Origin: Candidatus Marinacidobacterales bacterium
GTDB taxonomy: Bacteria; Acidobacteriota; Vicinamibacteria; Marinacidobacterales; DATDRI01
Direction: 5' to 3'
Length of the DNA stretch: 64,000 bases
Assembly: GCA_965226495.1 (NCBI GenBank)
Contig: OZ245365.1
Span: 896,001 to 960,000, forward strand
In this document: positions 28,249 to 64,000 of the stretch, piece by piece
Numbering within the stretch: position 1 is the stretch's first letter
Layout: each line of letters begins with the position of its first letter
Notes under the pieces: model-generated
Seen by the model: only the letters and a program-made list of their open reading frames with translations
Databases searched by the model: none
What the model was told of the DNA's origin: nothing
Made by a program: the position numbers and the translations under genes

Positions 28249-31200
28249 ATGAGGTGGCATTTCTGGATCGACAGGGGTGGCACCTTTACCGATGTGGTGG
28301 GCCGGCGTCCCGACGGCGCCGTCGTATCGCAAAAACTCCTTTCGGAAAACCCGGGCCGCTACACCGACGCGGCGATTGAAGGTATCCGGCGGCTACTCGA
28401 TGTTCCGATCGCGGCCGCGATCCCCGCCTCCGAGATCGAGGTGGTCAAGATGGGAACGACCGTGGCCACCAATGCGCTCCTGGAGCGAAGGGGAGTCCCC
28501 GTGGCGCTCGCCATCACCAAGGGGTTCCGAGACGCGCTGCGCATCGCTTACCAGAATCGGCCCCGGCTCTTCGTCCACCGGATCGAGCTTCCCGGGATGC
28601 TCTACGAGCGGGTGCTCGAGGTTGATGAGCGAATGAGTGCCCAGGGCGAGGTGTTGCATCCCCTCTCGATCGAGGCGGTCCGTCGCGACTTGGAAGTGGC
28701 TTTCGCAGCCGGCATCCGTTCCTTGGCCATCGTCTTCATGCACGGGTATCGCTACCCGAATCACGAGAAGCAAGTAGCGGCGCTGGCGCGGGAGATCGGG
28801 TTTACGCAGATCTCGGCGAGCTCAGAGGTAAGCCCACTCATGAAGCTCGTCTCGCGCGGCGACACCACGGTCGTCGACGCCTATCTCTCGCCGATCCTTC
28901 GCCGCTATGTGGACGGCGTCTCGGGTGAGCTGGGCACTACTCGCTTGATGTTCATGCAGTCCAGCGGCGGCCTTACCGACGCCCACCTCTTTCGTGGCAA
29001 GGACGCCATCCTCTCCGGGCCGGCAGGGGGTCTGGTGGGCGCGGTGGAGACATCGGCCATGGGCGGCTTCGAGAAGATCATTACCCTCGACATGGGCGGC
29101 ACTTCCACGGATGTGGCCCACTACGACGGTGAGTACCCACGGGTCTTCGAGACGCGGGTGGCGGGCGTTCGTATGCGGGCGCCGATGATCGAGATCCATA
29201 CCGTTGCCGCTGGCGGTGGGTCCATCGTGAGGTTCGACGGCGCGCGTTATCGCGTGGGCCCCGAATCGGCAGGCGCCGACCCGGGCCCCGCCTGCTACCG
29301 GCGTGAGGGGCCGCTGGCTCTTACCGATGCCAACCTCATGCTGGGCCGCATCGTTCCGGAGTTCTTCCCCCATGTCTTTGGCCCCGAGGGCAACTCGCCC
29401 CTAGACGCGGAAGTCGTTTCCAGGGGTTTCGCCGAGTTGGCGAAGACGATCGGCGAGGCCACCGACGATGTGCGCCGCCCCGAGGAGGTGGCCGAGGGTT
29501 TCCGCCGGATCGCCATCGAGAACATGGCCAACGCCATCAAGAAGATCTCGCTCGAGCGTGGCTACGACGTAACCGAGTACACGCTGAGTTGCTTCGGCGG
29601 CGCGGGTGGGCAACATGCGTGCGACATCGCCGATACCCTGGGGATGACCACGATCTTTCTGCACCCCCTGGCAGGCGTTCTCTCCGCCTACGGTATGGGG
29701 CTGGCCGACGTTAGGGCGCTTAGGGAGCAGGCGGTCGAAGCCGAGCTAGACGAAGAGATGCTCGCCTCGCTCTCGGACACCTTGGAGCGTTTGGCGGAGG
29801 CGGGGCGGAAGGAGCTTCGTCACCAGGGTGTCGCGGAGGAGCACATCGAGGTGCTTCAGAAGGTGCATCTGCGCTATATGGGTACCGACTCGGCCCTCGT
29901 CATCGACTACGGAGATCTAGCTTCCGTCACCACCCGGTTCGAGGCCGCCCACCGTCAGCGCTTTGGGTTCACAATGGAAGACAAGGGTTTCATGGTGGAG
30001 GCGGTCTCGGTCGAGGTGATTGGCCGGACGACCACGGTCGAAGAGCCACTTCTGGAGGCCGTGGTCCGCAAACAACCGATCGAGCCTAGTACCCACGTTC
30101 CCATGTATGTGGGGGGCGATTGGCATGACACACCCGTTTACGAGCGAGAAGATCTCGTCCGTGGCGACACGATCGACGGCCCGGCCATCATCACGGAAGC
30201 GGGGAGCACCACGGTCGTCGAGCTCGGCTGGCAATCGCGGCTTACCGAGCGTAACCACCTCGTGTTGAAGCGCGTGGTCCCGCTTCCCCGTCGCAAAGTG
30301 GTGGGCACCGAGGCCGACCCGGTGATGCTCGAGATCTTCAATAACCTCTTCATGTCCATTGCCGAGCAAATGGGCTCGACCCTCGAGAAGACCGCCTACT
30401 CTGTGAACATCAAGGAACGACTCGACTTCTCCTGCGCCATTTTCGATCCGCACGGGAACCTCGTCGCCAACGCCCCTCACATGCCGGTTCACTTGGGGTC
30501 CATGAGCGAGAGCATCCGTACTGTGATCCGCGAGAACCGGGAGCAACTAGCTCCCGGAAACGTTTATGTGTTGAACGCACCTTACAACGGCGGGACTCAC
30601 TTGCCGGACGTCACCGTGGTGACGCCGGTCTTCGACGCCGGCGGTAACGAGCTCCGGTTCTTCGTGGCGAGTCGTGGTCACCATGCCGATATTGGAGGCG
30701 TGACACCGGGCTCCATGCCGCCTGACAGCCGCAGCGTGGACGAGGAGGGTGTGCTCATCGACAACTTCAAGCTGGTCGATGGCGGTCGATTCCGCGAGGC
30801 GGCCATGCGCCAACTACTAACCTCGGGACGTTACCCGGCGAGAAATCCGGACCAAAACATCGCTGATTTGAAGGCCCAGATTGCCGCCAACGAGAAGGGA
30901 GTTCAGGAGATCGGAAAGATGATCGAGCACTACGGCCTGAACGTCGTGCACGCTTACATGAAGCATGTGCAGGACAACGCCGAGGAGCATGTACGCCGCG
31001 TGCTCGACGTGCTCAAGGACGGTCGCTTCCGCTATCCTCTCGACGACGGTGCTGTCGTGGCGGTCCAGATCCGCATCGACAAAGAAAGCCGGAGCGCACT
31101 CATCGACTTCTCCGAGACCAGCCCCCAGCAGCCGACGAACTTCAACGCGCCCAGTGCGGTGTGCCGTGCCGCCGTGCTCTACGTTTTCCGTACTCTGGTC

Positions 31201-31845
31201 GATGACGAGATCCCGATGAACGAAGGCTGCCTCAAACCGCTTGAAATCACCATCCCCGAAGGCTCGATGCTGAGCCCTCGCTATCCCGCCGCCGTGGTCG
31301 CAGGCAACGTGGAGACTAGCCAAATCATCACCGACACGCTCTATGGAGCTTTGGGAGTCCTCGCCGCTTCCCAAGGCACCATGAACAACTTCACCTTCGG
31401 CAACGATCGACATCAGTACTATGAGACCGTTGCCGGCGGCGCCGGCGCCGGGCCGGACTTCGACGGCACTGACGCCGTCCACACCCACATGACGAACTCA
31501 CGTTTGACGGATCCAGAGGTGCTCGAGTGGCGGTTCCCCGTGCTCCTGGAGTGCTTCGAGATCCGTCGCGGCTCCGGAGGGTCTGGCCGGCATCGGGGAG
31601 GCGACGGAGCGCGCCGACGGATCGTCTTCCGCGAGGCGATGACGGCGGCCATCCTTTCCAGCCACCGGAAGGTGCCTCCCTTCGGCGTTGACGGTGGGGA
31701 GACCGGAGCGTTAGGCCGCAACCGGGTCGAGCGGACGGACGGAACGGTAGAAGAGCTCGAAGGCACCGACCAGACCGAAATGAATCCAGGAGATGTCTTC
31801 GTCATCGAAACCCCAGGGGGTGGCGGCTTCGGTCCTCCCGAGTAG
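28249..31845 (+). CDS. 5-oxoprolinase-like fused hydantoinase A/B protein (ATP-dependent)
   Basis: IDRGGTFTD, LSGPAGG, DMGGTSTD, NIKERLDFSCA, HMPVHLGSM, TPGGGGFG. Confidence 0.92.
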   Translation: MRWHFWIDRGGTFTDVVGRRPDGAVVSQKLLSENPGRYTDAAIEGIRRLLDVPIAAAIPASEIEVVKMGTTVATNALLERRGVPVALAITKGFRDALRIAYQNRPRLFVHRIELPGMLYERVLEVDERMSAQGEVLHPLSIEAVRRDLEVAFAAGIRSLAIVFMHGYRYPNHEKQVAALAREIGFTQISASSEVSPLMKLVSRGDTTVVDAYLSPILRRYVDGVSGELGTTRLMFMQSSGGLTDAHLFRGKDAILSGPAGGLVGAVETSAMGGFEKIITLDMGGTSTDVAHYDGEYPRVFETRVAGVRMRAPMIEIHTVAAGGGSIVRFDGARYRVGPESAGADPGPACYRREGPLALTDANLMLGRIVPEFFPHVFGPEGNSPLDAEVVSRGFAELAKTIGEATDDVRRPEEVAEGFRRIAIENMANAIKKISLERGYDVTEYTLSCFGGAGGQHACDIADTLGMTTIFLHPLAGVLSAYGMGLADVRALREQAVEAELDEEMLASLSDTLERLAEAGRKELRHQGVAEEHIEVLQKVHLRYMGTDSALVIDYGDLASVTTRFEAAHRQRFGFTMEDKGFMVEAVSVEVIGRTTTVEEPLLEAVVRKQPIEPSTHVPMYVGGDWHDTPVYEREDLVRGDTIDGPAIITEAGSTTVVELGWQSRLTERNHLVLKRVVPLPRRKVVGTEADPVMLEIFNNLFMSIAEQMGSTLEKTAYSVNIKERLDFSCAIFDPHGNLVANAPHMPVHLGSMSESIRTVIRENREQLAPGNVYVLNAPYNGGTHLPDVTVVTPVFDAGGNELRFFVASRGHHADIGGVTPGSMPPDSRSVDEEGVLIDNFKLVDGGRFREAAMRQLLTSGRYPARNPDQNIADLKAQIAANEKGVQEIGKMIEHYGLNVVHAYMKHVQDNAEEHVRRVLDVLKDGRFRYPLDDGAVVAVQIRIDKESRSALIDFSETSPQQPTNFNAPSAVCRAAVLYVFRTLVDDEIPMNEGCLKPLEITIPEGSMLSPRYPAAVVAGNVETSQIITDTLYGALGVLAASQGTMNNFTFGNDRHQYYETVAGGAGAGPDFDGTDAVHTHMTNSRLTDPEVLEWRFPVLLECFEIRRGSGGSGRHRGGDGARRRIVFREAMTAAILSSHRKVPPFGVDGGETGALGRNRVERTDGTVEELEGTDQTEMNPGDVFVIETPGGGGFGPPE

Positions 31846-32095
31846 TGACCGGCTCCCTGTTGCTTTGTGCACGCTGGGGGTATATGGGATAGGTGCATGC
31901 ATCCCAGTGGAGCCCTATCCCTAAATCGCTGGAACGCTCGCCCGCTCTTCGCAAAGGCTCACCTCCGCTTCACTGTGATCATTCCTGATGGTTTTCTCTC
32001 GCAGAGTAATGCAATTGGCGTGCTTGCTCATGTGAGGTCACGACACGCCTGACGCCAGGGCTTAAGTTGCCTAGGCGTGAGAAAGGAGAACGATC

Positions 32096-35000
32096 ATGAG
32101 GGTACGGACATTGACGCTCGTTATTGCCGGGATGGCGTTGGCCTCTCAAGCTCCGCATCTTCAAGGAGAGACCGCCGAGCTGGCTTTCGATTCTTTATTC
32201 AATCTAGGTGCCGTCCTGGAAGATCGCAATGGGGATGGCATTGCCGACTTCGTCAACGTCCGGATCGTGGTTCCGGAGGCGGCCTCGCCATCCGACATCT
32301 CGGGAGCGGCAGAAATCGCCGCCCGGCTCGGCTACGAGACCACGGCAACGGACATACCGCTGGTTGTAGCCGACACCGGCATCGAGCCGGCCTCGGCCGG
32401 CCAACCGCTCATCCTCGTGGGCCGGAACAATAAATGGGTGGACGAGAAGAAACTCGGTTCGGGCCAGCTAGCGGCGGGCCAGGGCGCCGCTGTTCTGGTT
32501 GGCTCGGCTTTCGGCTCGAACGATGCTCTGATGGTCTTCGGGGCGGATGAAGCAGGGAGCTTGGCAGCGGCTCGAGCGGTCGCGAGCCGCGTTCCGTTTG
32601 TAGGAAAGATCGGCGGGGCCACGTTCGCGACGGTAGAAACGGATGTCGAAAACTTCCTTTCCGAAAAGGACATCCGACCAGCCTCCCCTCCGCGGTCGAC
32701 GCGAATGGTCACGGATTCGAGCCCGAATACCGTTAGGGTTTCGGTCGACGTGCGGCTCTCGAGTCAACAGCAAGTCCGAGCGGCGCAGGCGGCCCTTCGG
32801 TCGCTGGCGGGGGCGCACCGGCAGGGTCGAAGCGGGGAGGTTTTGAGCTACCCGGGGCTTACGAGTCTCGAAGTGGAGCTTTCTGCGGAGGGTCTCCGAA
32901 GGTCGGTGGTCATCCCGGGTGCGGCGGCTGTGGAGATGACGATGGCGGCTCCTCCGGGTAAGCCGGGGAGCAAACAGTTCGATCTCTCGAATCTTTACAG
33001 CATCGAGGGTCTGTTTGAAGACACCAACAACGACCTGATCCCGGACGCGAGCGTCACTGCTCTCATTCTGGGGGAGGGAAGCGCGCGGCCCGCGGTGGGC
33101 TGGCTGGCCACACGGCTGGGACTGGAATCGGCTGGAATCCGTCTGCCTCTCAGCGAGAGCGTTTCCAACCTTGAAGAGGTTCCCAAGGAGGGACATCCCA
33201 TCTTGATCGGAACCCAGGGAGATTTGATCGACCCTCTGCGAGAGCAGGGAAAACTCCGAGGCGGGGAGCTGGGTGCCGGGGAAGGGCTCGTGCAGGTGGT
33301 CCGTAAGGCGATTGACGACTCTGCCGCGGTGGTGGTGACCGGCGGGGACGAGGCGGGCTTGGACGCGGCGCTGGACTACGTGAGCCAGCGGCTGCCGCAC
33401 CTCGACGAGCGGGGCAAGGATCGGCCCACCCTGGGCGATGTGGTCGAGGAAGGAAGGAGATTTCTCGGCGCCCGCAACGCTTCCGGCCAAGCGGCCACCG
33501 CGATTTACAAGCTCGACCAGATGGTGTCGGACCTCGAGGGCAAAGATTTAGAGCGTCTCGAGGCGAAGGTTTTCATCGATAAGGCGAGCCCTGAGTTGAA
33601 GGGCTTCCTCGAGCAACGGCTTGGCTCGAAAGTCCGTGCCGACGAGCTAGAGGTTGAAGTAGCCAGCCTCAATATCCACGACTCGGTCACCTTGCATGAA
33701 GAGACGGTGGAGTTCCCTTGGGAGGTGGATGATTTCTGGAAGGTCTTCCGGGAGAAGCTTCTCCGTCGCGTGAAGTCGCGCTCGAAGGTGGAGCTCGAGG
33801 TGCGGCTCGGCGAGTCTCCCGAGATCCGGCGGGAGCTCGTGAAGCAGATCCGCTCCGAGCTGAAGCAGAAGGCCAAGAGGGGCACGGTGGAGGTTCAAGT
33901 GCTGTCCTCGTACAAGGCGGGCTACAGCTGGCTGACGGAAGTCGTCGCTCCGGCCATTCAGGGAAAGGACATCGGGAAGATCCGCGTCAGCTTTGCCGAG
34001 CTCAAGCCTGAAAAGTGGCAGGAGATCTACTCGAAGATCCGCTGGTTGCTGGAGCTTTACCCGGTCGATGAAGTGCTGGCTCGGGATCTGGGGATACCGC
34101 TGGGGTCGGTCGAGTTTGAGATGAAGGACGAAGACTCCCCGACCTACGAGGTCCTGGTGACCGACAAGCAAGGAGGAGAGCTCTACCGGGGAAGCTTCGA
34201 CGCGAAATACGTTATTCGTCCAATGTTCGACCAGTTTCCGGATTACGACAAAGTGCATGTGACAACGGGTTGGGTCACGGCCAAGGTGGACGGTAAGCCG
34301 GTGGTCGATGAGCGCATCGTGACCGACATCGAGAAATTCTGGGATCACTATCAAAAAGAAACGCTTCCTCGCGCTTACAGCCATATCATGGACCTGTACG
34401 AAGGCAAGCCGCGGGCGCGATACGCGCCTTACTTCGGAGAGCTGCGGGTCGATCTGACGATGAGCGAGCCCAACTTTCGCATCGGGATCGACGAGGAGAT
34501 CATCTCCTCGCTGGACGCCGTCCACGAGGACATCTATTTCGATACCATCGCCTTTTTCGACGTGATGGGCATGCGGACGTCGGAGGAAAAGCTCTGGCAT
34601 CCGGGCCGGATTCTGCCCTATATGCGCCCGACCGAGAAAGGAGGGCCGGGGAAAGCAGTGATCCGTTTCACCGGCAAGCCGGCCGGTTACCCTCGAGTGG
34701 TGGTTCGTTTCCAGGAGCGAGGCGGTGAGACGACGGAGCGCAAGCTGGAGATCGCGCCGATGGAGATCGACCCCCCTCGGGCGGCAGCGGTGAGGGTGCG
34801 TGGGGGCTCCAATCGTCTGGAGAAGCTATTCCTGGAATGCAAGGTCGACACCGAGCGGGATGAGAGGGAGGCTCTCTTGCTCCGGGCGCGAGAGGAGCAG
34901 GTGGACCGTTTGATCCTCTCCCAGGAGCAGGCGGTGGCGATGGTGGAGGCGTTAGCGGAGCTGCAGCAGAGGGGGCTTTACACCGAGGCGTTTGGGTATC

Positions 35001-36292
35001 CGGCTCTCGAGGAGCTCGATTTCGTCTTTCAAGTGGGAGAAAAAGAGGCAGCCGCCTCACTGCGGTCCAGCGGGAAGAAACCACAACAGGATATCAAGAC
35101 TGTAGCGAAAGGCTATCAACACCGGGGGGAGCGTATCGTTCATTGGGATGCTCCGATCAGCCCCAAGGAAGCCGAGCAAATGGTGGCGAAGCTAGACACT
35201 TTCCCCGAGTTCACGGCCTATCACGCCGGCCGGTCGTTTCTGGGCCAGGACATCTGGGCGATGGATGTGATGCTGCCGGTGGAAGCCAGTCACTGGTCCC
35301 AGGCCAAGGCCAGCACCGTCAAGCCGGTCCTCATTATCTCGGGCCGCCAACACGCCAACGAGGTTTCGAGCACCAGCCACATACTCCGTCTCGCCGAGCT
35401 AGTGGCCACCAAGGAGGAGTACAAGCGTTATCTCGAGCGGGTCAACGTGGTCATCCACCCGATTACCAACCCGGACGGCGCCGCGCTTGCCTATGAGTTT
35501 TACCAGATCACCCCCGACTTCATCCTACATGCGGGCTATCTCGGCTCGCTCGGAATCGATATGACCACCCAGATGTGGGAGAAGGATCCTATCTACCCGG
35601 AGGCGAAGGTCCGTACCGAGCTGTGGAGAACCTGGCTTCCGGACATCTTCCTCAATCCGCACGGCTACCCCAAGCACGAGTGGGTGCAGTACTTCGCCGG
35701 CTACGCGGCCTGGGTGCGGGCCCGCTTCCCCACGAACCACGCGTGGGCCGGCCCTCGGGGCTGGTACACCAGCGTACGCTATGTGGACGACCCCAAGTAC
35801 CCGCACCACAAGGAGGTTGCTTTCGCCCTGCGTGACTACGTCGTCAAAGGTATCCTCAGCGAGCCGGCGGTGATGGCAATGAACGAGCGCATGTACTCCC
35901 GCTATGACCGGTACGGGGGGAGGTTCGATCCCGAGAACTTCAAACGCGACTACTATGAGCGTGTCCGCATTTATGAGGCGCTCAAGGGAGGGAAGCCGGA
36001 CCCGAAATCGAGCGATTTTGGCACGCGCTACCCGAACGTCACGGTCAAATCATGGGGCACGGAGGCTCCCGACGAAACCGCCTATGGAGATTGGATGAAG
36101 CTGGTTGCCTCCGCCGGGTTTCAGTTCGACTTGGCCAACCTGAAATATCTCTACGATTCCACCTATGAAGTGAAAAGAACCCACGAGCGTCTTGGGGAAA
36201 CGGTACGGTTTGCGACAATTAGGCCGAGGCCGCCTCGGCCGGGTAAGTCGAGTACGTCGAGTACTGAAGAGAAGCCCACATCCGAACCGTAA
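32096..36292 (+). CDS. Giant secreted M14-family zinc metallopeptidase-like protein, paralog A
   Basis: AAAGGAG RBS, signal peptide, two repeated N-terminal modules; C-terminal RQHANE, TNPDG, NPHGYP, TEAPDE. Confidence 0.8.
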   Translation: MRVRTLTLVIAGMALASQAPHLQGETAELAFDSLFNLGAVLEDRNGDGIADFVNVRIVVPEAASPSDISGAAEIAARLGYETTATDIPLVVADTGIEPASAGQPLILVGRNNKWVDEKKLGSGQLAAGQGAAVLVGSAFGSNDALMVFGADEAGSLAAARAVASRVPFVGKIGGATFATVETDVENFLSEKDIRPASPPRSTRMVTDSSPNTVRVSVDVRLSSQQQVRAAQAALRSLAGAHRQGRSGEVLSYPGLTSLEVELSAEGLRRSVVIPGAAAVEMTMAAPPGKPGSKQFDLSNLYSIEGLFEDTNNDLIPDASVTALILGEGSARPAVGWLATRLGLESAGIRLPLSESVSNLEEVPKEGHPILIGTQGDLIDPLREQGKLRGGELGAGEGLVQVVRKAIDDSAAVVVTGGDEAGLDAALDYVSQRLPHLDERGKDRPTLGDVVEEGRRFLGARNASGQAATAIYKLDQMVSDLEGKDLERLEAKVFIDKASPELKGFLEQRLGSKVRADELEVEVASLNIHDSVTLHEETVEFPWEVDDFWKVFREKLLRRVKSRSKVELEVRLGESPEIRRELVKQIRSELKQKAKRGTVEVQVLSSYKAGYSWLTEVVAPAIQGKDIGKIRVSFAELKPEKWQEIYSKIRWLLELYPVDEVLARDLGIPLGSVEFEMKDEDSPTYEVLVTDKQGGELYRGSFDAKYVIRPMFDQFPDYDKVHVTTGWVTAKVDGKPVVDERIVTDIEKFWDHYQKETLPRAYSHIMDLYEGKPRARYAPYFGELRVDLTMSEPNFRIGIDEEIISSLDAVHEDIYFDTIAFFDVMGMRTSEEKLWHPGRILPYMRPTEKGGPGKAVIRFTGKPAGYPRVVVRFQERGGETTERKLEIAPMEIDPPRAAAVRVRGGSNRLEKLFLECKVDTERDEREALLLRAREEQVDRLILSQEQAVAMVEALAELQQRGLYTEAFGYPALEELDFVFQVGEKEAAASLRSSGKKPQQDIKTVAKGYQHRGERIVHWDAPISPKEAEQMVAKLDTFPEFTAYHAGRSFLGQDIWAMDVMLPVEASHWSQAKASTVKPVLIISGRQHANEVSSTSHILRLAELVATKEEYKRYLERVNVVIHPITNPDGAALAYEFYQITPDFILHAGYLGSLGIDMTTQMWEKDPIYPEAKVRTELWRTWLPDIFLNPHGYPKHEWVQYFAGYAAWVRARFPTNHAWAGPRGWYTSVRYVDDPKYPHHKEVAFALRDYVVKGILSEPAVMAMNERMYSRYDRYGGRFDPENFKRDYYERVRIYEALKGGKPDPKSSDFGTRYPNVTVKSWGTEAPDETAYGDWMKLVASAGFQFDLANLKYLYDSTYEVKRTHERLGETVRFATIRPRPPRPGKSSTSSTEEKPTSEP

Positions 36293-36357
36293 CAAAGGGT
36301 GCACGGAGAAAGAGAACGTCTGGCTCACACTGACAATTGAAACGGTGTAAGAAACTG

Positions 36358-39455: not shown

Positions 39456-39526
39456 GCCGGGTATGGTAGCTGCGGCCGCAGCTCCGCCGCCACCATCATC
39501 AGCCCTCCGTCTCCGGTGAGCCGGTT

Positions 39527-39622: not shown

Positions 39623-39628
39623 GGTCGG

Positions 39629-43342: not shown

Positions 43343-43380
43343 TGGGCCCAAGTTTCGAGTAATGAACTGAGGTGTATGGT

Positions 43381-54600: not shown

Positions 54601-54989
54601 CGGACGAGGTTGAGAAGGCAGGAAACGCCCTGATCGAGAAGCTCACAGCAATCGAGTGGGAACTGGTGCCGACCGAGGATGACTACCGGATGGATCGGCT
54701 CGACTTCCCGCCGAAGCTGCTCAACCGGTTTACATTCCTTTATAACTTCGTAGGTAGCGCGGACGCCAAGCCTACAGACGGTTCTCATGAACGCTTCGAG
54801 GACCTAAAGCCCGAGCTGGCGAAGCGTGTCGCGCGATTGCAGGAAGTCATCGAAACCGAACTGCCTGCGTTCAACACGCTGATTCTGCAGAGCGATGTGG
54901 CACCGGTTATCGTCACCGACCTGTCCCTTGAAGAAACTGAGTCCGCGAACGTTTTTCGGATGAAAGGGGGTTGCCAAGACCCTTCTTAG
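51630..54989 (+). CDS. Secreted Asp-box (BNR)/Vps10-sortilin-like beta-propeller protein
   Basis: Repeated S/TxDGGxT/SW boxes (KSTDAGKSW, RSKDGGRTW, KTTDGGDTW and others); GLNRFVWDLRY, PGTYQVRL; signal peptide; AGGAGG RBS. Confidence 0.85.
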   Translation: MKGLWKIITHVSMFATPLCLLTSLPAATHAQDPVTKSHVVYHPALYQALKYRMIGPHRGSRVTAVSGVASQRETFYMAPTGGGVWKTIDGGEIWESVSDGYFEAGSMGAITVADSDPNVIYVGTGSACIRGNVSPGIGMYKSTDAGKSWKHVGLEDAGQIGRIRVHPNNSDLVYVAVLGHAFGPNEQRGVFRSKDGGRTWEKVLYISEKTGAIDLAMDTNNPRVLYAAMWTGERKPWAILSGSEEGGLYKTTDGGDTWTELTNGLPTGITGRIGVTVSPAQSERVWALVEAEEGGVFRSDDAGTTFRRVNKERGLQRRPWYYMHIFADPKDENTVYIATRHFVKSVDGGKTFEPINVPHGDQHDLWINPHDPNVMIEANDGGANISFNGGKSWSTQLNQPTAEMYRVTVDNQFPYRVYGAQQDQYEAISLPSRSANFGAKLQLQYWYGVGGFEGGHVAVHPDNPNIVYGGGPSGIISRYDRSTGQIRQIKGYPEGWSRGTAAKNLRYRFPWSAPIRLSPHDPNILYHTSQYVHKSTNGGQSWELISRDLTTNDKAKQDYSTGPITRGGGSAEIYTTIFAFEESPKKPGLLWAGSDDGLMHISQNGGASWDNVTPEGLPEWGTVNTIDLSAHDPGRAFVAVHRYRLDDFKPYIFRTNDYGKSWKLLTDGSNGIPANHFVRVAREDPDRKGLLYAGTEFGMYISFDDGTHWQSFQLNLPVTPITDMVVHQKDLVMSTQGRSFWILDDLTPLHQITDQVAKSEAYLFKPRDAYRVRTSEEEADQAYVAGRENVTNPRDPIGGARIERHRMGTEAPDGAIIYSYFAKKPEEEVTVEILDLSGNVIRSFSSKDEPKDKSVVARPEPPWLKDESTYSKAGLNRFVWDLRYSGAEVVENGTLSRLTRDLGAPETIGPKAVPGTYQVRLAAGEWSQTQSFEVLKDPRLDTTLADYRQQFDLLTQIRNQIGELHHAVSQIRDVREQVSQLVVRLKKTARADEVEKAGNALIEKLTAIEWELVPTEDDYRMDRLDFPPKLLNRFTFLYNFVGSADAKPTDGSHERFEDLKPELAKRVARLQEVIETELPAFNTLILQSDVAPVIVTDLSLEETESANVFRMKGGCQDPS

Positions 54990-57115: not shown

Positions 57116-60100
57116 TTATGGGCGATCGCTCGTCGTGGGCGACGGCTCCTCCTTTTTCTCTGGCGGTCGTGCGCGATGCATGCTGAAGTGGACACCGCGG
57201 AAGAAGATTTTGCTTTTTCGCTCGACTACGTGGTTACCCTCCACGAGGTAGTCGAGGTTGGCCCGGTCGAACTGGAAGCCCGCGGTGGCCACGACCTTCA
57301 GCCAATCGCCGTAGGCGGTCTCGTCAGGACCCTCGGTGCCACCCCGATAGATGGTGACCTTGGGGTTCTTGCTCATGAAGTCGTTGCCCTCGCCGGCTTT
57401 CTCACCCTTGATGGCGGTGTAGGCGAGCACGCCGTTGGTGAAGTCGAGCCTGAAGCTTTCGGGGTCGAACGCGACGCCCCAGCGGCGGTAGCGGTCGTAG
57501 GCTCGCCGGTTCATGGCCATCACCTCCGGCTCGGCGCTGATGTACTGGGTGACCTTCTCGCGGATCTCGAAGGCCGCCTCCTTGTGTCGGGGGTACTCCG
57601 GGTCCTCGAGGTAGCGGATGCTGGCGTACCAGCCTCGCGTCGCCCACCAGTCGTGGGACTCGGTCGTTCGTTTGCGAACCCATGCCGCGTACTCGGAGAA
57701 CATCTGGACCCATTCGTGGTGGGGGTAGCCGTGCGGGCTGAGGTAGATATCGGGGAGCCACTTCCTCCAGAGTTTCGGGCGATTGTGGGACTCTGGGTAG
57801 ATAGGATCGGGATCCCAGTGGGACTCCTGCACCCCCACGCCCAGGGCCCCCAAGTACCCGGCGTGGAGCATGTATTCGGGGGTGATCTCGTAGAGATCGT
57901 AGGCGAGCTGCGCACCGTCCGGGTTGGTGATGGGATGGACCACTACGTTGGCCTTGTTGAGCTTCTGGCGGAACTGCTCGTCGGTGAGCAGACGCTCGGT
58001 GAGCTTCAGCACGTGGCTGGTGGAGGAGATCTCGTTGGCGTGCTCCCGCGCGGAGTAAATGATAGTGGGCTTGAGCGTGGTCGCCTTCGCGTGAGACCAG
58101 TGGGAGGCCTCTATCGGCGGCATCAGATCCATCGCCCAGATTTCCTTGCCTAAATAACTCTCGCCGAGCTTGTAGACGGTCGTCTCGGGGAAGGTGGACA
58201 TCTTGGCGAGGATTTCGAACGCTTCGTCGGGAGGGATGGGAGTGTCCCACTGCACGAGGGTCTGGCCGTTGTATTGCCAACCTGCGGGCAGGCGCTCGGT
58301 GATGTCGGGGAATGATGGGGGAGCGCCGTTGCTTCCGAGTGACGCCACCGCCTGAGTTGCCGGGTCCACCTCGTACTCCCACCCGGCGGTGATTTTGAGC
58401 TCGCCTAAGTCGTGGTACGCGAGAGTGTCACGATAGAGACCAGCCTGCCGCAGCCGGGACAGGTTCTCCACCAGTGCCGTGATTTGCTGGGCGGACATGA
58501 TCCGTCGGTCCACCTCTTCAACACGCGCTCGCGTCAGGAGCTCGGTGCGCTGATCCGTTTCGGTATCCACCTTCACCCGCAGTTCCAGGCGCTCGATCCC
58601 GTCGAGTCCGTCTCGTACGGTTGCCGCCAGGGCCTGGGGGCGTTCCAGATCCACGCGCCGTATGTCCCGGCGCACCTTGCCTTGCCCGCCCCCTCGCTCC
58701 GTGTACTCCACCACCACCGCCGGACGAGGGGAGGCGAAGCCGCTGAAAGAGATCTTCGCCCGTCCCGCCTTGCCGTCTCCCTTGGGACGCATGATGGGGA
58801 TCACCCGGCCCGGAAAGCGCAGCTTGTCGCCCTGGGCGAATTGGCCCAGCACGTCGAAGAAATGCAGGGTGGTGAAGTAGAGATCCTCGTGCATCGACTC
58901 CATGGAAGCGATGAGCTCCCGGTCGACGCCCAGCAAGTAATTGGGCTCGCTGAGGGTCAAGTCCACGACGAGTTTCCCGAAGTGGGGTGCGTCCTCCGCC
59001 CGGGGGTTGCCCTCGGTAAGCTCCATCACGTAGTCGTACATCCCTTGCAGGGTCTTTTCCTGATAGTGGTCCCAGAAGCGCTCGACGTCGGTGATGATCC
59101 TACGGTCCACAACCGTATCGCCGCCCACCCGGGCGTTGAGCCATCCGGTGGTTACCCGGACCTTCTCGTAATCGGGAAGGGGATCGAAATACGACCTCAA
59201 CACGTACTTAGGCTCGAAGGTCTGCCGGAGCAACTCGCGGCCGTCGGGCGCCGTGGCGATGGCCTCGTACGTCGGTGCACCGATCGGCATCATCTCGAAG
59301 CCGATCTGATCCAACTCGAGGCCCAGCTCCCGAGCCAGCACCTCGTCGATGGGGTAGGTCTCCATCAGCCAGCGACTCTTGGCGTACATGGCCTGCTGCT
59401 TCCACTCCGGCGGCGGGCCGTTCTCCGCAAAGCGGATGGTCAGCTTACCCACCTTCTGGCCTTTGAGCTCCGGGCCTACTACGTCGTGCAGCCAGCTGTA
59501 GCCTTGTTTGTAGGCCGAAAGCACAGTGACGTTGGTGCCCGATTCCGCCGCGCCCGCGGCGATCAGCTCCGCCCTTGCCTTTCCTTCGATCTCCGTCCGG
59601 ACTTCCGGCGGCTCGCTCAGGCGCGCCTCTATCACCACGGGCTGCCCACTCCGGACTTCCGGCACAACCTCCAAGCGAAAGATCTCCCAGAACTCCGCAA
59701 CCTCCGAGGCAACGTCGAACTCTTCTTCGAAGAGGATCGCGGCGTTCTCTACGTCCCGGTTATCGATGCTTACCTCGAGGGAGCCGGCACCCAGGGCTTC
59801 CGCATGCTCCCGCACGATCCCCTCCAGTCCGTCCGCCGGCTTCTCCACCGAAACCAGAACGCGCGCGGACTCCAGGTCTTTTCCGGACAACTCCTGAACG
59901 AGGCTATCCAGTTTGTACAGGGCGGTGGCCGCCTGCCCGGCGGGGGAGCGACCCGAAAGGAACCGGTACAGGTTCTCCTCGACGCCCTCGATGGTCGTGC
60001 GATCCTTGCCGCGCTCCCAGACATTGGGAAACCGCTCGGCAATTTGCCGAAGCGCCCGGGCGACACCGGCCCCGTCACCTCCTGTGATCACCACCGCACT

Positions 60101-61357
60101 CTTGTCCTTGAACGCTTTGGGTACCACTTGGATGAGACCCTGGCCCGGCTCGAGGGAAGGCAGCTGTAGCTTTCCCTTCTGCTCCAGTTGCTGCACGAGA
60201 GGATGGTCGGTGCCGATGAGCACCAGCGACGGCGCCGCTTCCGGATCCTCGATGGCCTCCGGCGCGCGGGCTATGGGGATCTGGACTCCGGCCGACTCCA
60301 GCCCGATGCGGGCGGCAAGATCCACCGTCCCCTCGATCCCCTGGCCAAAGGGACTGAGGAGCACGTCGATCCGGTCGGGGATCAGGTTCTCGTCCGAATC
60401 GCCGAGGAAGCCATCGTTGGTGTAAATACTAGAAAGATCCAACTTTACCTTTGCCTTAGAGCCTGGCCGCGGAGGGATCGGCCCTGCCTTGGGGACGGAA
60501 TTCACTTTTGGCACCTCCACCTCCGCCGCGTCGGCCCCTTGTGCCAAGAGCGCCACACGCAGCACGCGCGCACCCGGGTAGGAGAGAGGCGCCTCGGCGC
60601 CGCTTGCTAAGCCACGACGCGCCCCGACCAGCTCCTCGAGGGCTCCTCGAGCGCGGCTGAGGTCAGACGCCGAGCCTAGCTGCACCTTCACCTCCAGGAG
60701 CCGAAACCCCTGCTCGCCTGCTTTCACACGAAGGCCGGCCACCTCGGAGCCTTGCGCCCGAACCCCGTGCTCGACCAAGAAAGCCTCCACGTCCTGAGTT
60801 ACGTCCTTCAGCTCCGGGCCCTTTGGATCCCACACATGGGGAAGGCGTTGTGCGAACGCGTCCGCCGCCGCCCGGGTGCCGGCATCGTCGGAGCCTGCCA
60901 CCACGACCCAGCGGGGCCCGCTTCCGGAGACCATCCGGACCACGCCCTCGCCAGGCGAAAGGCCCTGAAGCCCGGCATCGGCGGCACGGAGGCCAGCCCG
61001 TGCCACGGCCCCTTTACCAATGAGGATTCCGGTGGTGGCAGCCCCGGGCTCCGAAGCCACCGGCACGTTCATGGCCATGGTTTCGTGGCCCATTCGAGCC
61101 GCGATATCGGCCGCGGCGGCGACTTCCTGAGGCGTCGGCGCCTCACCCAAAACGATGGCCGCCTCGACGAAATCGACTACCTCATCGCCATTTCGATCCT
61201 GCAGGATGGCTCCCGTCGAAAAAATCCCCTCGAGGCCGGTATCGGACTCTTGCGGCGTCGTCTGCGACACCGGCACGGCGGCACCCGACACTGCCAGAAG
61301 GATTATCACGACCAACAACGTGGCCCCTCGGGGCACTCGATACTCTGCCTGTCTCAT
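57116..61357 (-). CDS. Giant secreted M14-family metallopeptidase-like protein, paralog C
   Basis: AAGGAG RBS, signal peptide; REHANE, TNPDG, SPHGYP, TEGPDE. Confidence 0.8.
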   Translation of the reverse strand: MRQAEYRVPRGATLLVVIILLAVSGAAVPVSQTTPQESDTGLEGIFSTGAILQDRNGDEVVDFVEAAIVLGEAPTPQEVAAAADIAARMGHETMAMNVPVASEPGAATTGILIGKGAVARAGLRAADAGLQGLSPGEGVVRMVSGSGPRWVVVAGSDDAGTRAAADAFAQRLPHVWDPKGPELKDVTQDVEAFLVEHGVRAQGSEVAGLRVKAGEQGFRLLEVKVQLGSASDLSRARGALEELVGARRGLASGAEAPLSYPGARVLRVALLAQGADAAEVEVPKVNSVPKAGPIPPRPGSKAKVKLDLSSIYTNDGFLGDSDENLIPDRIDVLLSPFGQGIEGTVDLAARIGLESAGVQIPIARAPEAIEDPEAAPSLVLIGTDHPLVQQLEQKGKLQLPSLEPGQGLIQVVPKAFKDKSAVVITGGDGAGVARALRQIAERFPNVWERGKDRTTIEGVEENLYRFLSGRSPAGQAATALYKLDSLVQELSGKDLESARVLVSVEKPADGLEGIVREHAEALGAGSLEVSIDNRDVENAAILFEEEFDVASEVAEFWEIFRLEVVPEVRSGQPVVIEARLSEPPEVRTEIEGKARAELIAAGAAESGTNVTVLSAYKQGYSWLHDVVGPELKGQKVGKLTIRFAENGPPPEWKQQAMYAKSRWLMETYPIDEVLARELGLELDQIGFEMMPIGAPTYEAIATAPDGRELLRQTFEPKYVLRSYFDPLPDYEKVRVTTGWLNARVGGDTVVDRRIITDVERFWDHYQEKTLQGMYDYVMELTEGNPRAEDAPHFGKLVVDLTLSEPNYLLGVDRELIASMESMHEDLYFTTLHFFDVLGQFAQGDKLRFPGRVIPIMRPKGDGKAGRAKISFSGFASPRPAVVVEYTERGGGQGKVRRDIRRVDLERPQALAATVRDGLDGIERLELRVKVDTETDQRTELLTRARVEEVDRRIMSAQQITALVENLSRLRQAGLYRDTLAYHDLGELKITAGWEYEVDPATQAVASLGSNGAPPSFPDITERLPAGWQYNGQTLVQWDTPIPPDEAFEILAKMSTFPETTVYKLGESYLGKEIWAMDLMPPIEASHWSHAKATTLKPTIIYSAREHANEISSTSHVLKLTERLLTDEQFRQKLNKANVVVHPITNPDGAQLAYDLYEITPEYMLHAGYLGALGVGVQESHWDPDPIYPESHNRPKLWRKWLPDIYLSPHGYPHHEWVQMFSEYAAWVRKRTTESHDWWATRGWYASIRYLEDPEYPRHKEAAFEIREKVTQYISAEPEVMAMNRRAYDRYRRWGVAFDPESFRLDFTNGVLAYTAIKGEKAGEGNDFMSKNPKVTIYRGGTEGPDETAYGDWLKVVATAGFQFDRANLDYLVEGNHVVERKSKIFFRGVHFSMHRARPPEKKEEPSPTTSDRP

Positions 61358-61628
61358 GGTTCTCTCCTTAACTCCCCCCAACAAACAACCGGGAGTACGT
61401 CGGATCCGACATCAAGAATTTTGTCTCCGTTGAATTGTCCTGGCGGTGGAACGGGCGCTTTGGCCTCTGGAGGACCCGAGTCTACCACGTCCAACACCTC
61501 CAAATCCCGAAAGAACGCCGCCGCATTCGACAGCGTCGACTGGAAGGCTACATCGAGGTATAAGGAGTTTCCTTCGGTTTAGGATCGGGCGGGCTAGCTT
61601 CTTTTGTCTTATGTCCAAGGAGGTTCGA

Positions 61629-63347
61629 ATGATGCGAGCATGGAAACGTTACCGAGCAATGGCTGCCGCGTGTGTGCTGGCGGGGACTATCGTCCTGCTG
61701 AGCATGTGGAGCGTCATACCCATTGAGGCTCAGAACATGGCCATCAACGGCATGGTGGTGACCTCACACCCAATGGCGGGGCAGGCGGGTCTGAGAATGT
61801 TGCAACAAGGCGGGAACGCCTTCGATGCCGCGGTGGCAACCGCCGCGGTGCTCGCCGTCACCGAACCGCTGATGTCCGGGCTCGGCGGTGTTGGTGGCTA
61901 CGCGCTGATCTATGACGCCAAAGAGAAACGGGTTCGCTCGGTGGACTTCGTCGGCGACGCGCCCGCTGCGGCGACGCCCGAAATGTACGAGGCCGGCGCG
62001 CGGCTCTGGGATCGTACCCACCCCGCCCGAGACGGCTTCATCGCGCCTCTCGTTCCAGGGAACCTCGCAGGTTGGGCCGCCCTGCTCGAGGAGTACGGCT
62101 CGATGAGCTGGCCGCAAGTGTTGGCACCCGCCATCGAGTACGCGGAGGCCGGCTTCGCGATGACCCCGTCGGTCAGCAATCCCTTCGGCAATGGGAGTTT
62201 TGGGGGCGCGGTGGGACGCTACCCTTACGGCGCAAGCATTTTCTTCAAGAACGGTAAGCCCTGGCCGGTAGGCGAGGTGCTGCAACAGCCCGACCTCGCG
62301 GCGAGCTTCAAGACCATCGCCGCGGAGGGCCCAGCGGCTTTTTACGGTGGGTCTCTCGCCGAGAAGTTCGCAGCGTTCTTTCAAGCAAACGGTGGCATCG
62401 TTACCGTCGAGGACTTCGCCAGCTATCGCGTGCGGTGGGCGGATCCGCTCTCGATCACCTATCGGGGTTATGACGTTCACAGCCAGCCCCCCGGTGGGTC
62501 GGGGATGACGGTCCTACAAACGCTCAATATTCTCGAACAGTTCGAGATTTCCGCTCTCGGTCACAACTCGCCGGAGTTCATCCATCTAGCGGCAGAGGCG
62601 ATGAAGCTGGCCTTCGTCGATGACGATGCCTACAATGTCGGCAAAGCGGGTGCCGAGGTTCCGCTTACGCGATTGCTCTCGAAGGAATATGCTAGGGAGC
62701 AGGCAGCGCGCATCGATCTAAAACGAGCGTCGTTCTATCCGCCGGTCCGTCGGTCGACGACGACCACCAGCGCCATCGATCACACCACCCATCACACCGT
62801 GGTTGACCGAGATCACAACGTGGTATCGATTACTCAAACGCTGATGCTTCCGGCAGGCGTCGTGGTTCCGGACACCGGCGTCATTTTCAATAACGGGATG
62901 TCGTACTTCAGCACCGATCCTGAGGACGCCAACTACATCGAAGGAGGAAAGCGCCCTCGCTTCGTCATGAGCCCGACCCTCATCATGCGGCACGGCGAGC
63001 CTTACTTCGCGCTCGGGGCCGCCGGTGGGTGGACGATCCAACAAACGGTTCTGCAGGTTGCAGTGCGTGCAATGGATTTCGACATGGACGCCCACGCGGC
63101 GGTGAAGGCTCCACGCTTCGTGCTTCGCTACCTGCGGAACTCGATCCCCTATATGGAAGGAACCGACCTGGTGTTGGAGCGCCCGTTCTCGAGCGAGGTA
63201 CGGGAGGCTTTGTCTTCGATGGGGCACCGCTTACGGGAGCCGGCCGAGCGGTTGGGGACGCTCCACGCCATCAAGATTTACCCGCAGAGCGGGGTTCTCT
63301 CCGGAGGCGCCGATGCACGACGGGAGGGTCACGCCGCTTCGTGGTGA
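61629..63347 (+). CDS. Secreted gamma-glutamyltransferase-family Ntn hydrolase
   Basis: GGNAFDAAVA, SGLGG, HTTH autoprocessing site, FNNGM, GAAGG, GADARREG; AAGGAGG RBS. Confidence 0.9.
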   Translation: MMRAWKRYRAMAAACVLAGTIVLLSMWSVIPIEAQNMAINGMVVTSHPMAGQAGLRMLQQGGNAFDAAVATAAVLAVTEPLMSGLGGVGGYALIYDAKEKRVRSVDFVGDAPAAATPEMYEAGARLWDRTHPARDGFIAPLVPGNLAGWAALLEEYGSMSWPQVLAPAIEYAEAGFAMTPSVSNPFGNGSFGGAVGRYPYGASIFFKNGKPWPVGEVLQQPDLAASFKTIAAEGPAAFYGGSLAEKFAAFFQANGGIVTVEDFASYRVRWADPLSITYRGYDVHSQPPGGSGMTVLQTLNILEQFEISALGHNSPEFIHLAAEAMKLAFVDDDAYNVGKAGAEVPLTRLLSKEYAREQAARIDLKRASFYPPVRRSTTTTSAIDHTTHHTVVDRDHNVVSITQTLMLPAGVVVPDTGVIFNNGMSYFSTDPEDANYIEGGKRPRFVMSPTLIMRHGEPYFALGAAGGWTIQQTVLQVAVRAMDFDMDAHAAVKAPRFVLRYLRNSIPYMEGTDLVLERPFSSEVREALSSMGHRLREPAERLGTLHAIKIYPQSGVLSGGADARREGHAASW

Positions 63348-63529
63348 GTCGGTAGAACGCCCGAAGCCTGATTGTTTTCGAGCCGCAACCGTGTTACCTA
63401 CGGACTTGCCGTGGGTCGTCGCCCCATGAAGTCTTGCCTTTCTTGGACTCCACCCAGCAGACCGGCCTCGGCCTGAAGGAACGAGAAAAACGACAAGAAC
63501 ATTCAACCCTTTGAATTGAGGAGTTGGCT

Positions 63530-64000
63530 ATGGAACAGGACCGAAGTCTCGCCACCGGCCTGCGGTTCGCCGCTGCGCTGCTCTTAGTCGTGTTAGGGAC
63601 GGGCGCGACCGCCCAAGAACCTGAAACCTCCGGACTGGAGGCGGTGTTCTCGCCGGGTCTGATTCTTCAAGATCGCAACGGGGACGGGGTCATCGATTTC
63701 ATCGACGCCGCCATCGTTGTGGGGGAGTCGCCCACGGTTGGTGACATTGCCGCGGCGGCCGACGTCGCGGCTCGGCTCGGCTACGAAACGATGGCCATGG
63801 ACATTCCTCTCGGCTCCACGGAGGAATCGTCCGGTCCGGCGATCCTCGTCGGCTCCGCGGCGCTTGCGCGGGCCGGCGTCGCCGCCGCCGATGTCGGCCT
63901 CGCGGGCTTGGAAAGCGGCGAGGGCATCATCACGCTTGCAGCCGCTAATGGACGTGAGTGGTTGGTGATCGCCGGAGCCGACGAGGCCGGTACGCGCGCG
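63530..64000 (+). CDS. Giant M14-like protein paralog D, N-terminal part (runs off window edge)
   Basis: My translation from ATG 63530 (GAGGAG RBS) gives ...ATAQEPETSGLEAVFSPGLILQDRNGDGVIDF..., nearly identical to the mature N-terminus of paralog B. Not in the ORF track. Confidence 0.85.
   Translation, partial: MEQDRSLATGLRFAAALLLVVLGTGATAQEPETSGLEAVFSPGLILQDRNGDGVIDFIDAAIVVGESPTVGDIAAAADVAARLGYETMAMDIPLGSTEESSGPAILVGSAALARAGVAAADVGLAGLESGEGIITLAAANGREWLVIAGADEAGTRA

Follow-up and report, generated by a model that had tools for sequence, protein, structure and literature searches.

Four giant M14-fold paralogs in a 'Candidatus Marinacidobacterales' genome and a putative Acidobacteriota envelope module linked by gene order to glutamate-lactam salvage

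A stretch of 64,000 nucleotides (hereafter, the window; contig OZ245365.1, positions 896,001 to 960,000) from the genome of a 'Candidatus Marinacidobacterales' bacterium (Acidobacteriota) carries, from position 28249 to its end, an island of genes that includes four paralogous giant proteins of 1398-1438 amino acids (aa), designated here giants A to D. The island is best explained by a widespread, uncharacterised envelope module that has expanded four-fold in this lineage. The module would combine an exported giant hydrolase with an outer-membrane barrel, an inner-membrane symporter and a cytoplasmic lactam hydrolase. Judged by gene order, the giant family is predicted to be tied to glutamate-lactam salvage. 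Our preferred reading, to which we assign a probability of about one half, is that the product of the module would be 5-oxoproline or a close lactam acid, which would be imported and opened to glutamate.

The giant paralogs and their immediate neighbours

The open reading frames (ORFs) of the window were listed and scanned against Pfam and NCBIfam; start coordinates are given as the first ATG together with, where present, an upstream alternative. A search of the whole genome (6.34 Mb) with giant A returned exactly four matches, all within the island, and the four paralogs which an earlier note on this DNA had located here proved to be the only ones in the genome, with lengths of 1398 (A), 1412 (B), 1422 (C) and 1438 aa (D). 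Giant A is 44-46% identical to the other three, which share 59-67% identity among themselves. Giant D runs across the end of the window; it is complete in the genome (L005:1524-5840) and ends about 3.8 kb past the window. The giants and their principal neighbours are the following, with the basis of each assignment in brackets:

28249-31845, plus strand: fused HyuA/HyuB lactam hydrolase (oxoprolinase/hydantoinase family), 1198 aa (Pfam, NCBIfam, tree)
32096-36292, plus strand: giant A, 1398 aa (ORF, Pfam, models)
36337-38595, plus strand: DUF5916 protein 1, 752 aa (Pfam DUF5916)
41009-43342, plus strand: DUF5916 protein 2, 777 aa (Pfam DUF5916)
43372-47610, plus strand: giant B, 1412 aa from GTG 43372 (first ATG 43381) (ORF, Pfam)
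49243-51393, minus strand: 5'-truncated Oar-like OMP_b-brl_4/TonB-type barrel ORF, 716 aa (Pfam, paralog alignment)
55031-57088, minus strand: S9 (prolyl-oligopeptidase family) peptidase, 685 aa (Pfam Peptidase_S9, PD40, DPPIV_N)
57116-61384, minus strand: giant C, 1422 aa from TTG 61384 (first ATG 61357) (ORF, Pfam)
61446-63347, plus strand: gamma-glutamyltransferase (GGT) 1, 633 aa (Pfam G_glu_transpept, TIGR00066)
63524-64000, plus strand: giant D, first 159 residues in the window (start 63524, first ATG 63530) (ORF)

The neighbours named in the earlier note (two DUF5916 proteins, an S9 peptidase, a GGT, a HyuA/HyuB oxoprolinase-type gene, an Asp-box protein and a TonB-type remnant) are all present, and several lie very close to a giant. 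DUF5916 protein 1 begins 44 bp after giant A, giant B starts 29 bp past the end of DUF5916 protein 2, and the S9 peptidase is located 27 bp downstream of giant C, while GGT 1 is divergent from giant C and upstream of giant D. Beyond the window, a second GGT lies directly 3' of giant D, followed by a proline-racemase-family gene, an MFS transporter, an esterase and a second S9 peptidase, 86% identical to the first.

Architecture and active site of the giants

Giant A consists of a signal-peptide-like N-terminus, a BcsB-like region (residues ~24-440), a middle region (~441-1010) and an M14-fold zinc domain (~1010-1385). In a simple hydropathy scan of 74 full-length family members, an N-terminal hydrophobic segment was evident in 68 and a later membrane-spanning segment in none, which suggests that the giants are soluble exported proteins. 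A separate idea, prompted by a Bacteroidetes "Q-rule" paper according to which exported proteins reportedly begin with an N-terminal Gln that forms a pyroglutamyl cap, was rejected: the AxA-Q pattern follows the hydrophobic segment in just 6 of the 74 giants.

Two AlphaFold models, one for each half of the protein, were built on alignments of 68-70 relatives (pLDDT 87.1 for the N-half and 88.6 for the C-half). The first ~415 residues of the N-half model adopt the fold of BcsB, the periplasmic cellulose-synthase subunit (chain 6yg8_A: Z 18.4, root-mean-square deviation (rmsd) 4.0 over 290 residues; Foldseek E ~1e-5). The likeness is in fold only, as the BcsB Pfam family is absent among the giants' matches at E <=0.01; the giants also differ from BcsB in the lack of nearby cellulose synthase genes and of a C-terminal membrane anchor, and in the fusion of the scaffold to a hydrolase. 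The first N-terminal module resembles the domain by which a Methanococcus S-layer protein is anchored to the cell wall (9fsa: Z 9.4, 29% identity), and this archaeal S-layer domain was alone matched when the whole-protein profile was compared with solved chains (E 5.9e-05).

The C-terminal ~375 residues have the M14 carboxypeptidase fold. VIA-align placed the M14 half on 7eqx (Z 24.5, rmsd 2.9, 248 residues) and 4a37 (Z 21.5), with 102 chains at a Z of at least 8, the ten best-ranked all being M14 enzymes that for the most part bear the name carboxypeptidase. The top Foldseek matches of the C-half are the bacterial carboxypeptidases 3k2k, 4b6z and 3l2n (E ~1e-10, probability 1.00), which, together with 4a37, we take to represent the M14D/CCP-like subfamily. 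By sequence the resemblance is fainter: PF00246 exceeds its gathering score of 21.6 bits in all four giants (A 48.2, B 33.8, C 48.8, D 44.4), but the match spans only model positions 10-115 of 286, and the M14 part alone returned nothing meaningful among the sequences of solved structures. A profile comparison by hhalign with canonical M14 genes from the same loci aligned the HxxE motif, the NPDG motif and the second His (probability 81.5%).

The zinc site itself is strongly conserved. Among the 74 full-length members, the Glu is present in all, the second His in 73 and the first His in 69, the other five having Asp. Giants A and C carry the motif HANE (residues 1086-1089 of giant A, window positions 35351-35362), whereas giant B has DANE, with the same Asp in four relatives (L016, L018, L021, L028). 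The motif TEAPDE contains a candidate general-base Glu, which 73 of the 74 members retain and which may correspond to Glu270 of carboxypeptidase A, the hhalign alignment ending before that position. The giants share with the M14 zinc carboxypeptidases the fold of the catalytic domain and the HxxE...H zinc motif, and the conserved Glu may stand where the general base is expected; they differ in having ~1000 additional N-terminal residues, in finding no solved M14 chain by sequence, and in the Asp that replaces the first His in giant B and its four relatives. The C-terminal domain is a real, though very divergent, M14-fold enzyme, whose chemistry may be unlike that of a plain carboxypeptidase.

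The giants are strongly conserved from end to end, the middle ~550 residues included (mean column identity of the C-half alignment, 57%). No credible Pfam match at E <=1 was obtained for the middle 570 residues of giants A and B. Stand-alone, shorter forms of this region amount to 11 proteins, of which two are named ("hypothetical protein") and many are probably fragments.

Distribution of the giant family

A word-index search scored 7997 candidates, 723 of them at E <=1e-3. Among the 120 matches listed, lengths range from 1359 to 1495 aa, and the only names are "hypothetical protein", "zinc carboxypeptidase" and "M14 family metallopeptidase"; the giant family is without a functional name in the collections searched. 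HMMER with a C-half profile gave 1178 cluster representatives at E <=1e-3, of which 537 reached E <=1e-30; they include forms of ~1000-1290 aa that share only the M14 part. In a set of 185,579 species genomes, relatives are encoded by 330 stretches. An even sample of the phylum yielded matches at E <=1e-30 in 53 of 301 genomes and 35 of 186 genera, the genome of the window included.

The best 80 of the 330 genome stretches provided the 79 loci on which our neighbourhood counts rest. Nearly all of these loci derive from Acidobacteriota (Vicinamibacterales, 'Candidatus Marinacidobacterales', Blastocatellia and others); a few are from Gemmatimonadota, and a few others bear labels resembling mis-binned contigs. 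The 'Candidatus Marinacidobacterales' relatives are 76-83% identical to giant A. The tree of the giants has three deep clades: (i) giant A, together with a group in which the genes are ordered MFS, barrel, giant, HyuA, HyuB; (ii) the upstream giant of the order regulator, giant, barrel, giant; and (iii) all others, including giants B, C and D and the giants that adjoin HyuAB or LamB.

Conserved linkage to lactam hydrolases, symporters and barrels

Neighbour families in the 79 loci were mapped on the DNA by tblastn and named by Pfam and NCBIfam on representatives. The loci are kin, several coming from one genome, so that the following counts are not independent trials and overstate independence:

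HyuA/HyuB: 29 of 79 loci
LamB/YcsF (PxpA): 28 of 79
Hyu or LamB: 52 of 79 (both in 5)
MFS: 38 of 79
SSF: 10 of 79
MFS or SSF symporter: 48 of 79
Oar-like barrel: 33 of 79 (at most 300 bp from the giant in 25)
DUF5916: 9 of 79
Either barrel class (Oar-like, or DUF5916 as a putative barrel): 39 of 79 (at most 300 bp from the giant in 28)
S9 peptidase: 16 of 79
GGT: 6 of 79
Sigma-54 response regulator: 12 of 79
Two or more giants: 18 of 79
Lactam hydrolase, transporter and barrel together: 21 of 79

The lactam-hydrolase gene nearest to the giant lies at a median distance of 160 bp, within 300 bp in 36 of the 52 loci that have one, and on the same strand in 50 of them. When only the 41 loci with full flanks are counted, a lactam hydrolase is found in 28, a symporter in 23 and a barrel in 23. 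For comparison, the 6.34-Mb genome of the window contains 14 Hyu loci, one LamB, nine DUF5916, seven GGT, 31 S9 and about 10 Oar-like barrel genes, and by simple arithmetic a random 24-kb stretch of it would be expected to include a Hyu gene in ~6% of cases and LamB in well under 1%.

The partners are repeatedly replaced by non-homologous ones. Where one subclade on the tree of the giants bears HyuAB, a sister subclade bears LamB in the same place; symporters are of the MFS type in some lineages and of the SSF type in others; and the barrel is mostly Oar-like, in some cases DUF5916, and in one Gemmatimonadota locus a DUF5686 protein with CarboxypepD_reg. Shared gene-order ancestry alone would be insufficient to explain a linkage that persists over three deep clades, through changes of gene order and swaps of non-homologous partners, and the linkage of the giants to lactam hydrolase, symporter and barrel accordingly looks functional. 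Other genes that recur beside giants in Vicinamibacterales, with no obvious link to the rest, are argJ, ornithine carbamoyltransferase and rhamnose-synthesis genes.

Linkage across the 79 loci bears out the proposal of the earlier note that the giants belong to a conserved extracytoplasmic system and not to a chance cluster. Of the partners it had named, the oxoprolinase is the strongest conserved feature and an outer-membrane barrel is a frequent direct neighbour, but the pairing with DUF5916 is a minority arrangement (9 of 79 loci, versus 33 of 79 for the Oar-like TonB-type barrel). GGT and S9, suggested as amide-processing partners, turned out to be facultative, though true orthologs recur near giants in other orders. 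Co-occurrence among homologs holds for oxoprolinase-type genes (52 of 79) and is not general for DUF5916 or GGT (6 of 79), while the symporter (48 of 79) and the exchange of two unrelated oxoprolinase types had been overlooked.

The lactam hydrolases

All four Pfam domains of the type (Hydant_A_N, Hydantoinase_A, Hydant_A_C and Hydantoinase_B) are present in the HyuAB protein of the window. In a tree of HyuB sequences, 21 of the 24 from giant loci form one clade with that of the window, from which the genome's 14 other paralogs are separate; the remaining three fall into a second orthogroup, represented in the window's genome by a cassette downstream of the island (see below). For the LamB type, the representative L034:14088-14858 scores 375.2 bits against the cut-off of 226 for the NCBIfam PxpA subfamily model NF003814, the equivalog models not being reached. 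There is no PxpA gene in the window itself. In five of five LamB-type genomes the single LamB adjoins a giant, and a single PxpC occurs elsewhere, whereas in four of five Hyu-type genomes, whose completeness is not given, LamB was not found. This is the complementary pattern to be expected if HyuAB and LamB each serve as the 5-oxoprolinase of their cell.

Both types of symporter belong to families for carboxylates or proline-like compounds (MFS, anion:cation type; SSF, PutP/PanF/MctP-like). Taken together, the HyuB clade, the PxpA match, the LamB/PxpC distribution and the symporter families suggest that the cargo passing from envelope to cytoplasm would be a small lactam acid, most simply 5-oxoproline. 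In loci with the order giant, PxpA, MFS, a protein of ~444 aa that matches nothing in Pfam or NCBIfam follows the MFS gene (L042:16489-17823 and relatives, 7 loci).

The downstream cassette mentioned above lies about 45 kb beyond the window (L086, genome positions 998001-1018000). It comprises an MFS gene, which is the sole close homolog in the genome of the giant-linked MFS, followed by a divergent, complete Oar-like barrel of 989 aa, DUF3179, HyuA and HyuB, and it continues with FAD-oxidase and sarcosine-oxidase gamma genes and a large NAD-glutamate dehydrogenase. DUF3179 takes the position that is held by the giant in relatives.

Proposed mechanism

The core of the proposed module would consist of four elements: (i) a giant of ~1400 aa, exported by the Sec route, in which a BcsB-like scaffold and the conserved middle precede an M14-fold zinc hydrolase at the C-terminus; (ii) a barrel in the outer membrane, as a rule of the Oar-like TonB type with CarboxypepD_reg, for which a DUF5916 protein would stand in the lineage of the window; (iii) an inner-membrane carboxylate symporter of the MFS or SSF type; and (iv) in the cytoplasm, a 5-oxoprolinase-like lactam hydrolase, which is PxpA or a member of one particular HyuAB orthogroup. 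The data show the architecture of the giants, their conserved zinc site and a gene linkage that outlasts repeated partner swaps; we infer the substrate and product of the giants, their place in the periplasm or at the surface, and what the barrel does. Outside the cytoplasm, the giant would hydrolyse an amide bond of a peptide that contains glutamyl or pyroglutamyl residues, or of a polymer-bound amide, and would release a small acidic product, either 5-oxoproline or a lactam acid very close to it, for uptake by the symporter. The oxoprolinase would then open the ring to give glutamate. In some lineages, that of the window included, GGT and S9 peptidases may contribute accessory trimming.

Several observations weigh against this scheme, in addition to the kinship of the 79 loci. 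No Hyu or LamB gene is within reach in 27 of the 79 loci, and 10 loci have none of the three partner classes (4 of these are shorter than 24 kb and 6 have full 10-kb flanks). Within the island, giants B, C and D have no oxoprolinase gene of their own adjoining them. The HyuAB protein of the window falls below every NCBIfam equivalog cut-off (caprolactamase models, 365 and 188 bits versus 1000), its nearest solved chain is 7hk5, named "N-methylhydantoinase" (E 2.3e-142), and it need not act on 5-oxoproline, since a canonical pxpA-pxpC cluster lies ~90 kb upstream in the same genome. In view of that cluster and the downstream cassette, the Hyu enzymes of this genome may have diverged in substrate. 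PxpA is reported to need PxpB and PxpC, both of which are unlinked to the giants' loci. On the side of the giants, the Asn144/Arg145 carboxylate clamp of M14 carboxypeptidases may not be conserved: hhalign sets it on two variable positions of the motif QWxxDPIYPE, in a stretch of low confidence, and the chemistry may for this reason not be carboxypeptidase-like, though other invariant arginines exist. Finally, an M14 carboxypeptidase that releases mainly 5-oxoproline is, to our knowledge, not textbook chemistry.

Outer-membrane barrels and the direction of transport

The two DUF5916 proteins of the island, putative barrels, are 82-83% identical to each other and score 65.5 and 65.3 bits against a cut-off of 22.6, over model positions 5-96 of 572 only. 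The Atlas clusters nearest to protein 1 consist of 99-100% DUF5916 proteins, with CBM9_1, and its N-terminal region is itself weakly CBM9-like (CBM9_1, E 0.075). The TonB-type barrel ORF of the window matches OMP_b-brl_4 over model positions 154-836 of 838 and is 74% identical to residues 280-989 of the 989-aa genome paralog; nothing upstream of it matches residues 1-279 of the paralog, and it has no signal peptide, N-terminal extension or plug region. Since only residues 280-989 align and no N-terminal remnant precedes them, the ORF is a 5'-truncated remnant. The Oar-like barrels of the relatives and the paralog of the downstream cassette are complete, with a PF13620 (CarboxypepD_reg) extension followed by a PF25183 TonB-type barrel; the window copy, lacking the portion equivalent to residues 1-279, falls outside that architecture. 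A Gemmatimonadota locus (L055:7381-9993, minus strand) encodes a protein with DUF5686 and CarboxypepD_reg upstream of its giant, beside a peptidase M1 and an amidohydrolase; this protein may be a third kind of outer-membrane partner.

The barrel may import substrate or anchor the giant, as the earlier note suggested. The architecture of these barrels raises an alternative that we consider unlikely, namely that the barrel works outwards, exporting the giant across the outer membrane to act at the surface or in the medium, with the products entering through general porins. Oar, a TonB-type barrel of Myxococcus xanthus, is required together with the Ton system for secretion of the protease PopC, and its N-terminal extension is annotated as PF13620 (PMC6434023). 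The barrels beside the giants have the same arrangement and lie at most 300 bp from the giant in 25 of the 33 loci that possess one; a resemblance of the giants' N-terminal domain to an archaeal S-layer cell-wall anchor (9fsa, E 5.9e-05, Z 9.4) is likewise compatible with export. Against export stand the size of the giant (~150 kDa, far larger than PopC), the usual role of such barrels, which is import, and the state of the island, where the Oar-like copy is a truncated remnant and the giants adjoin DUF5916, a different family.

Accessory enzymes and the nature of the substrate

GGT 1 exceeds the TIGR00066 equivalog cut-off (434.9 versus 357.85 bits). Outside the order to which the window belongs, orthologs of the S9 peptidase (58-62% identity; L027, L056, L063), of DUF5916 (48-55%; L027, L063) and of GGT (68-70%; L025, L036, L039) again occur near giants, while other paralogs of the three families in the window's genome reach at most ~33-41% identity. 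The recurrence of orthologs near giants, together with the much lower similarity of the paralogs, indicates that all three are real but facultative accessories.

The GGT genes also lend themselves to a second alternative, close to the gamma-glutamyl-cycle idea of the earlier note and in our estimate rather improbable: the substrate, polymeric or peptidic, would be gamma-glutamyl-linked (e.g., poly-gamma-glutamate, gamma-glutamyl peptides or glutathione-like compounds), and it is its gamma-glutamyl bonds that the M14 domain would cut, GGT trimming the N-terminal groups and 5-oxoproline arising from gamma-glutamyl products. GGT and oxoprolinase act together in gamma-glutamyl turnover; giant D has GGT genes on both sides, the orthologs near giants in L025, L036 and L039 are 68-70% identical, and M14-fold relatives that cut gamma-Glu bonds are found among the structural matches (MpaA, Z 14.8; Csd4, Z 15.6; CCP5, Z 19.9). 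The best structural matches, however, are ordinary M14A/B carboxypeptidases, GGT is present in just 6 of the 79 loci, and no gamma-glutamylcyclotransferase is among the recurrent neighbours, though no search was made under that name.

A decidedly doubtful third possibility concerns the ring that is opened. The linked HyuAB and LamB enzymes could act on another lactam or hydantoin (N-methylhydantoin-like, caprolactam-like or another cyclic amide), made or unmasked by the giant. The sub-threshold caprolactamase matches of the Hyu proteins and the name of their best solved relative are compatible with this, as is the downstream cassette of barrel, DUF3179, HyuA and HyuB, whose sarcosine-oxidase genes fit a creatinine-type route and to whose orthogroup 3 of the 24 locus HyuB sequences belong. 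It sits poorly with the PxpA that swaps with HyuAB, which passes the NCBIfam PxpA subfamily cut-off and is the sole copy in all five genomes checked, and with the failure to find LamB in four of the five Hyu-type genomes. Very improbable is the view that there is no system at all, and that the giants serve in envelope or cell-wall remodelling (e.g., trimming of peptidoglycan stem peptides) with the linkage reflecting shared gene-order ancestry: many of the 79 loci are indeed kin, several from one genome, argJ, ornithine carbamoyltransferase and rhamnose-synthesis genes recur as well in Vicinamibacterales, and 10 loci lack all partner classes, but the linkage holds over three deep clades despite changes of order and through repeated swaps of HyuAB with PxpA, MFS with SSF and Oar-like barrels with DUF5916.

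Other genes of the window

The remaining genes of the island are as follows:

38592-39644, minus strand: CitE/HpcH-like lyase (Pfam, NCBIfam)
39545-40984, plus strand: MmgE/PrpD-family gene (Pfam, NCBIfam)
47921-49093, plus strand: 390-aa gene with no family match (Pfam, NCBIfam)
51630-54989, plus strand: Sortilin/BNR (Asp-box) protein, 1119 aa (Pfam)

None of these is recurrent in the related loci. The lyase and the MmgE/PrpD gene stand between the two DUF5916 genes (38592-40984); a CitE/HpcH-like lyase also follows DUF5916 in the nearest relative (L006), and neither gene recurs elsewhere. The Sortilin/BNR protein has 10 further paralogs in the genome (28-57% identity) and was found near a giant in 3 of 75 loci in an ORF-based pass. 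The 390-aa gene exists in 34 genome copies, many of them 65-77% identical, and its C-terminus resembles by eye an HNH nuclease motif; adjoining the truncated barrel remnant, it has the look of a selfish element present in many copies.

Just upstream of the island, two ORFs of 361 aa (19360-20445 and 23189-24274, both plus strand) have identical Pfam scores for an rve_3 integrase core and HTH_21, and look like copies of an insertion sequence. They flank a gene of the AbiEii toxin family (20872-21810, minus strand) and a fragment of a pyridoxal-phosphate-dependent decarboxylase (22374-23192).

No Rfam family was matched in window positions 26000-64000, and sigma-70 promoter-like and terminator-like sites between 28000 and 47999 show no excess over shuffles. 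An enrichment of sigma-54 promoters in the window was considered and rejected, as 49 consensus matches were counted versus 50.3 expected.

Presence in public RNA data

The stretch from giant A to DUF5916 is present in 20 public runs from eight studies, two of the runs being metatranscriptomes of one study. Contigs from these metatranscriptomes cover giant A (31966-35804) and giant B (43456-46465) with zero to few mismatches, a weak sign that both are transcribed in nature. The RNA-library contigs provide nearly no cover of Hyu, the two DUF5916 genes, CitE and PrpD, which is evidence neither of silence nor of separate transcripts.

Comparison with known systems

No description of a giant-hydrolase module was found in the literature searched, in keeping with the view of the earlier note that no system of this architecture has been characterised. 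The nearest parallel on the cytoplasmic side is pxpTABC of Corynebacterium glutamicum and Bacillus subtilis, in which a secondary transporter gene lies beside a 5-oxoprolinase gene and external 5-oxoproline is used, the transporter and PxpABC being the basis of growth on 5-oxoproline in Corynebacterium (PMC13274462). The giants' module differs in that its transporter is of the MFS or SSF and not of the NRAMP-like type, in that PxpB and PxpC are unlinked or PxpA is replaced by HyuAB, and in the addition of an exported giant hydrolase and an outer-membrane barrel.

As in the Oar/PopC pair (PMC6434023), a PF13620-extended barrel is paired with a protease-like protein. The polysaccharide utilisation loci of Bacteroidota resemble the module in that they, too, join a TonB-type barrel to a hydrolase outside the cytoplasm, a transporter of the inner membrane, an enzyme in the cytoplasm and a regulator of their own; in the giants' module, the fold of the hydrolase is that of a peptidase or amidase and not of a glycosidase, and the downstream enzyme is a lactam hydrolase. 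No SusD was among the Pfam matches of the scanned neighbours, though no search was aimed at it. PopC, for its part, belongs to a protease family other than that of the giants and is much smaller. The module is best filed among the nutrient-utilisation loci, as one built around an uncharacterised branch of M14.

Implications for the Acidobacteriota

Acidobacteriota are among the commonest bacteria of soils and sediments, and most of their physiology is unknown. A more far-reaching joint reading, which is speculative and unlikely to hold in its entirety, is that the giants define an undescribed, phylum-wide pathway by which Acidobacteriota mine refractory organic nitrogen. The BcsB-like scaffold would hold a polymer or blocked peptide, and the re-tooled, clamp-less M14 domain would free 5-oxoproline from material that bears pyroglutamyl caps or gamma-glutamyl linkages. 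Through its CarboxypepD_reg extension, the barrel would attach to the giant and would thereby supply in trans the transthyretin-like domain which carboxypeptidase D has in cis, while the ~550-residue middle would constitute a novel domain and fulfil a separate function.

If the envelope module operates as we propose, with a lactam acid released outside the cytoplasm, imported and opened to glutamate, it would represent a route of organic-nitrogen acquisition that current annotation overlooks. It would also be a second case of a TonB-type barrel genetically paired with a protease-like protein, and would give a testable role to DUF5916, to the Oar-like barrels of Acidobacteriota and to many HyuAB paralogs.

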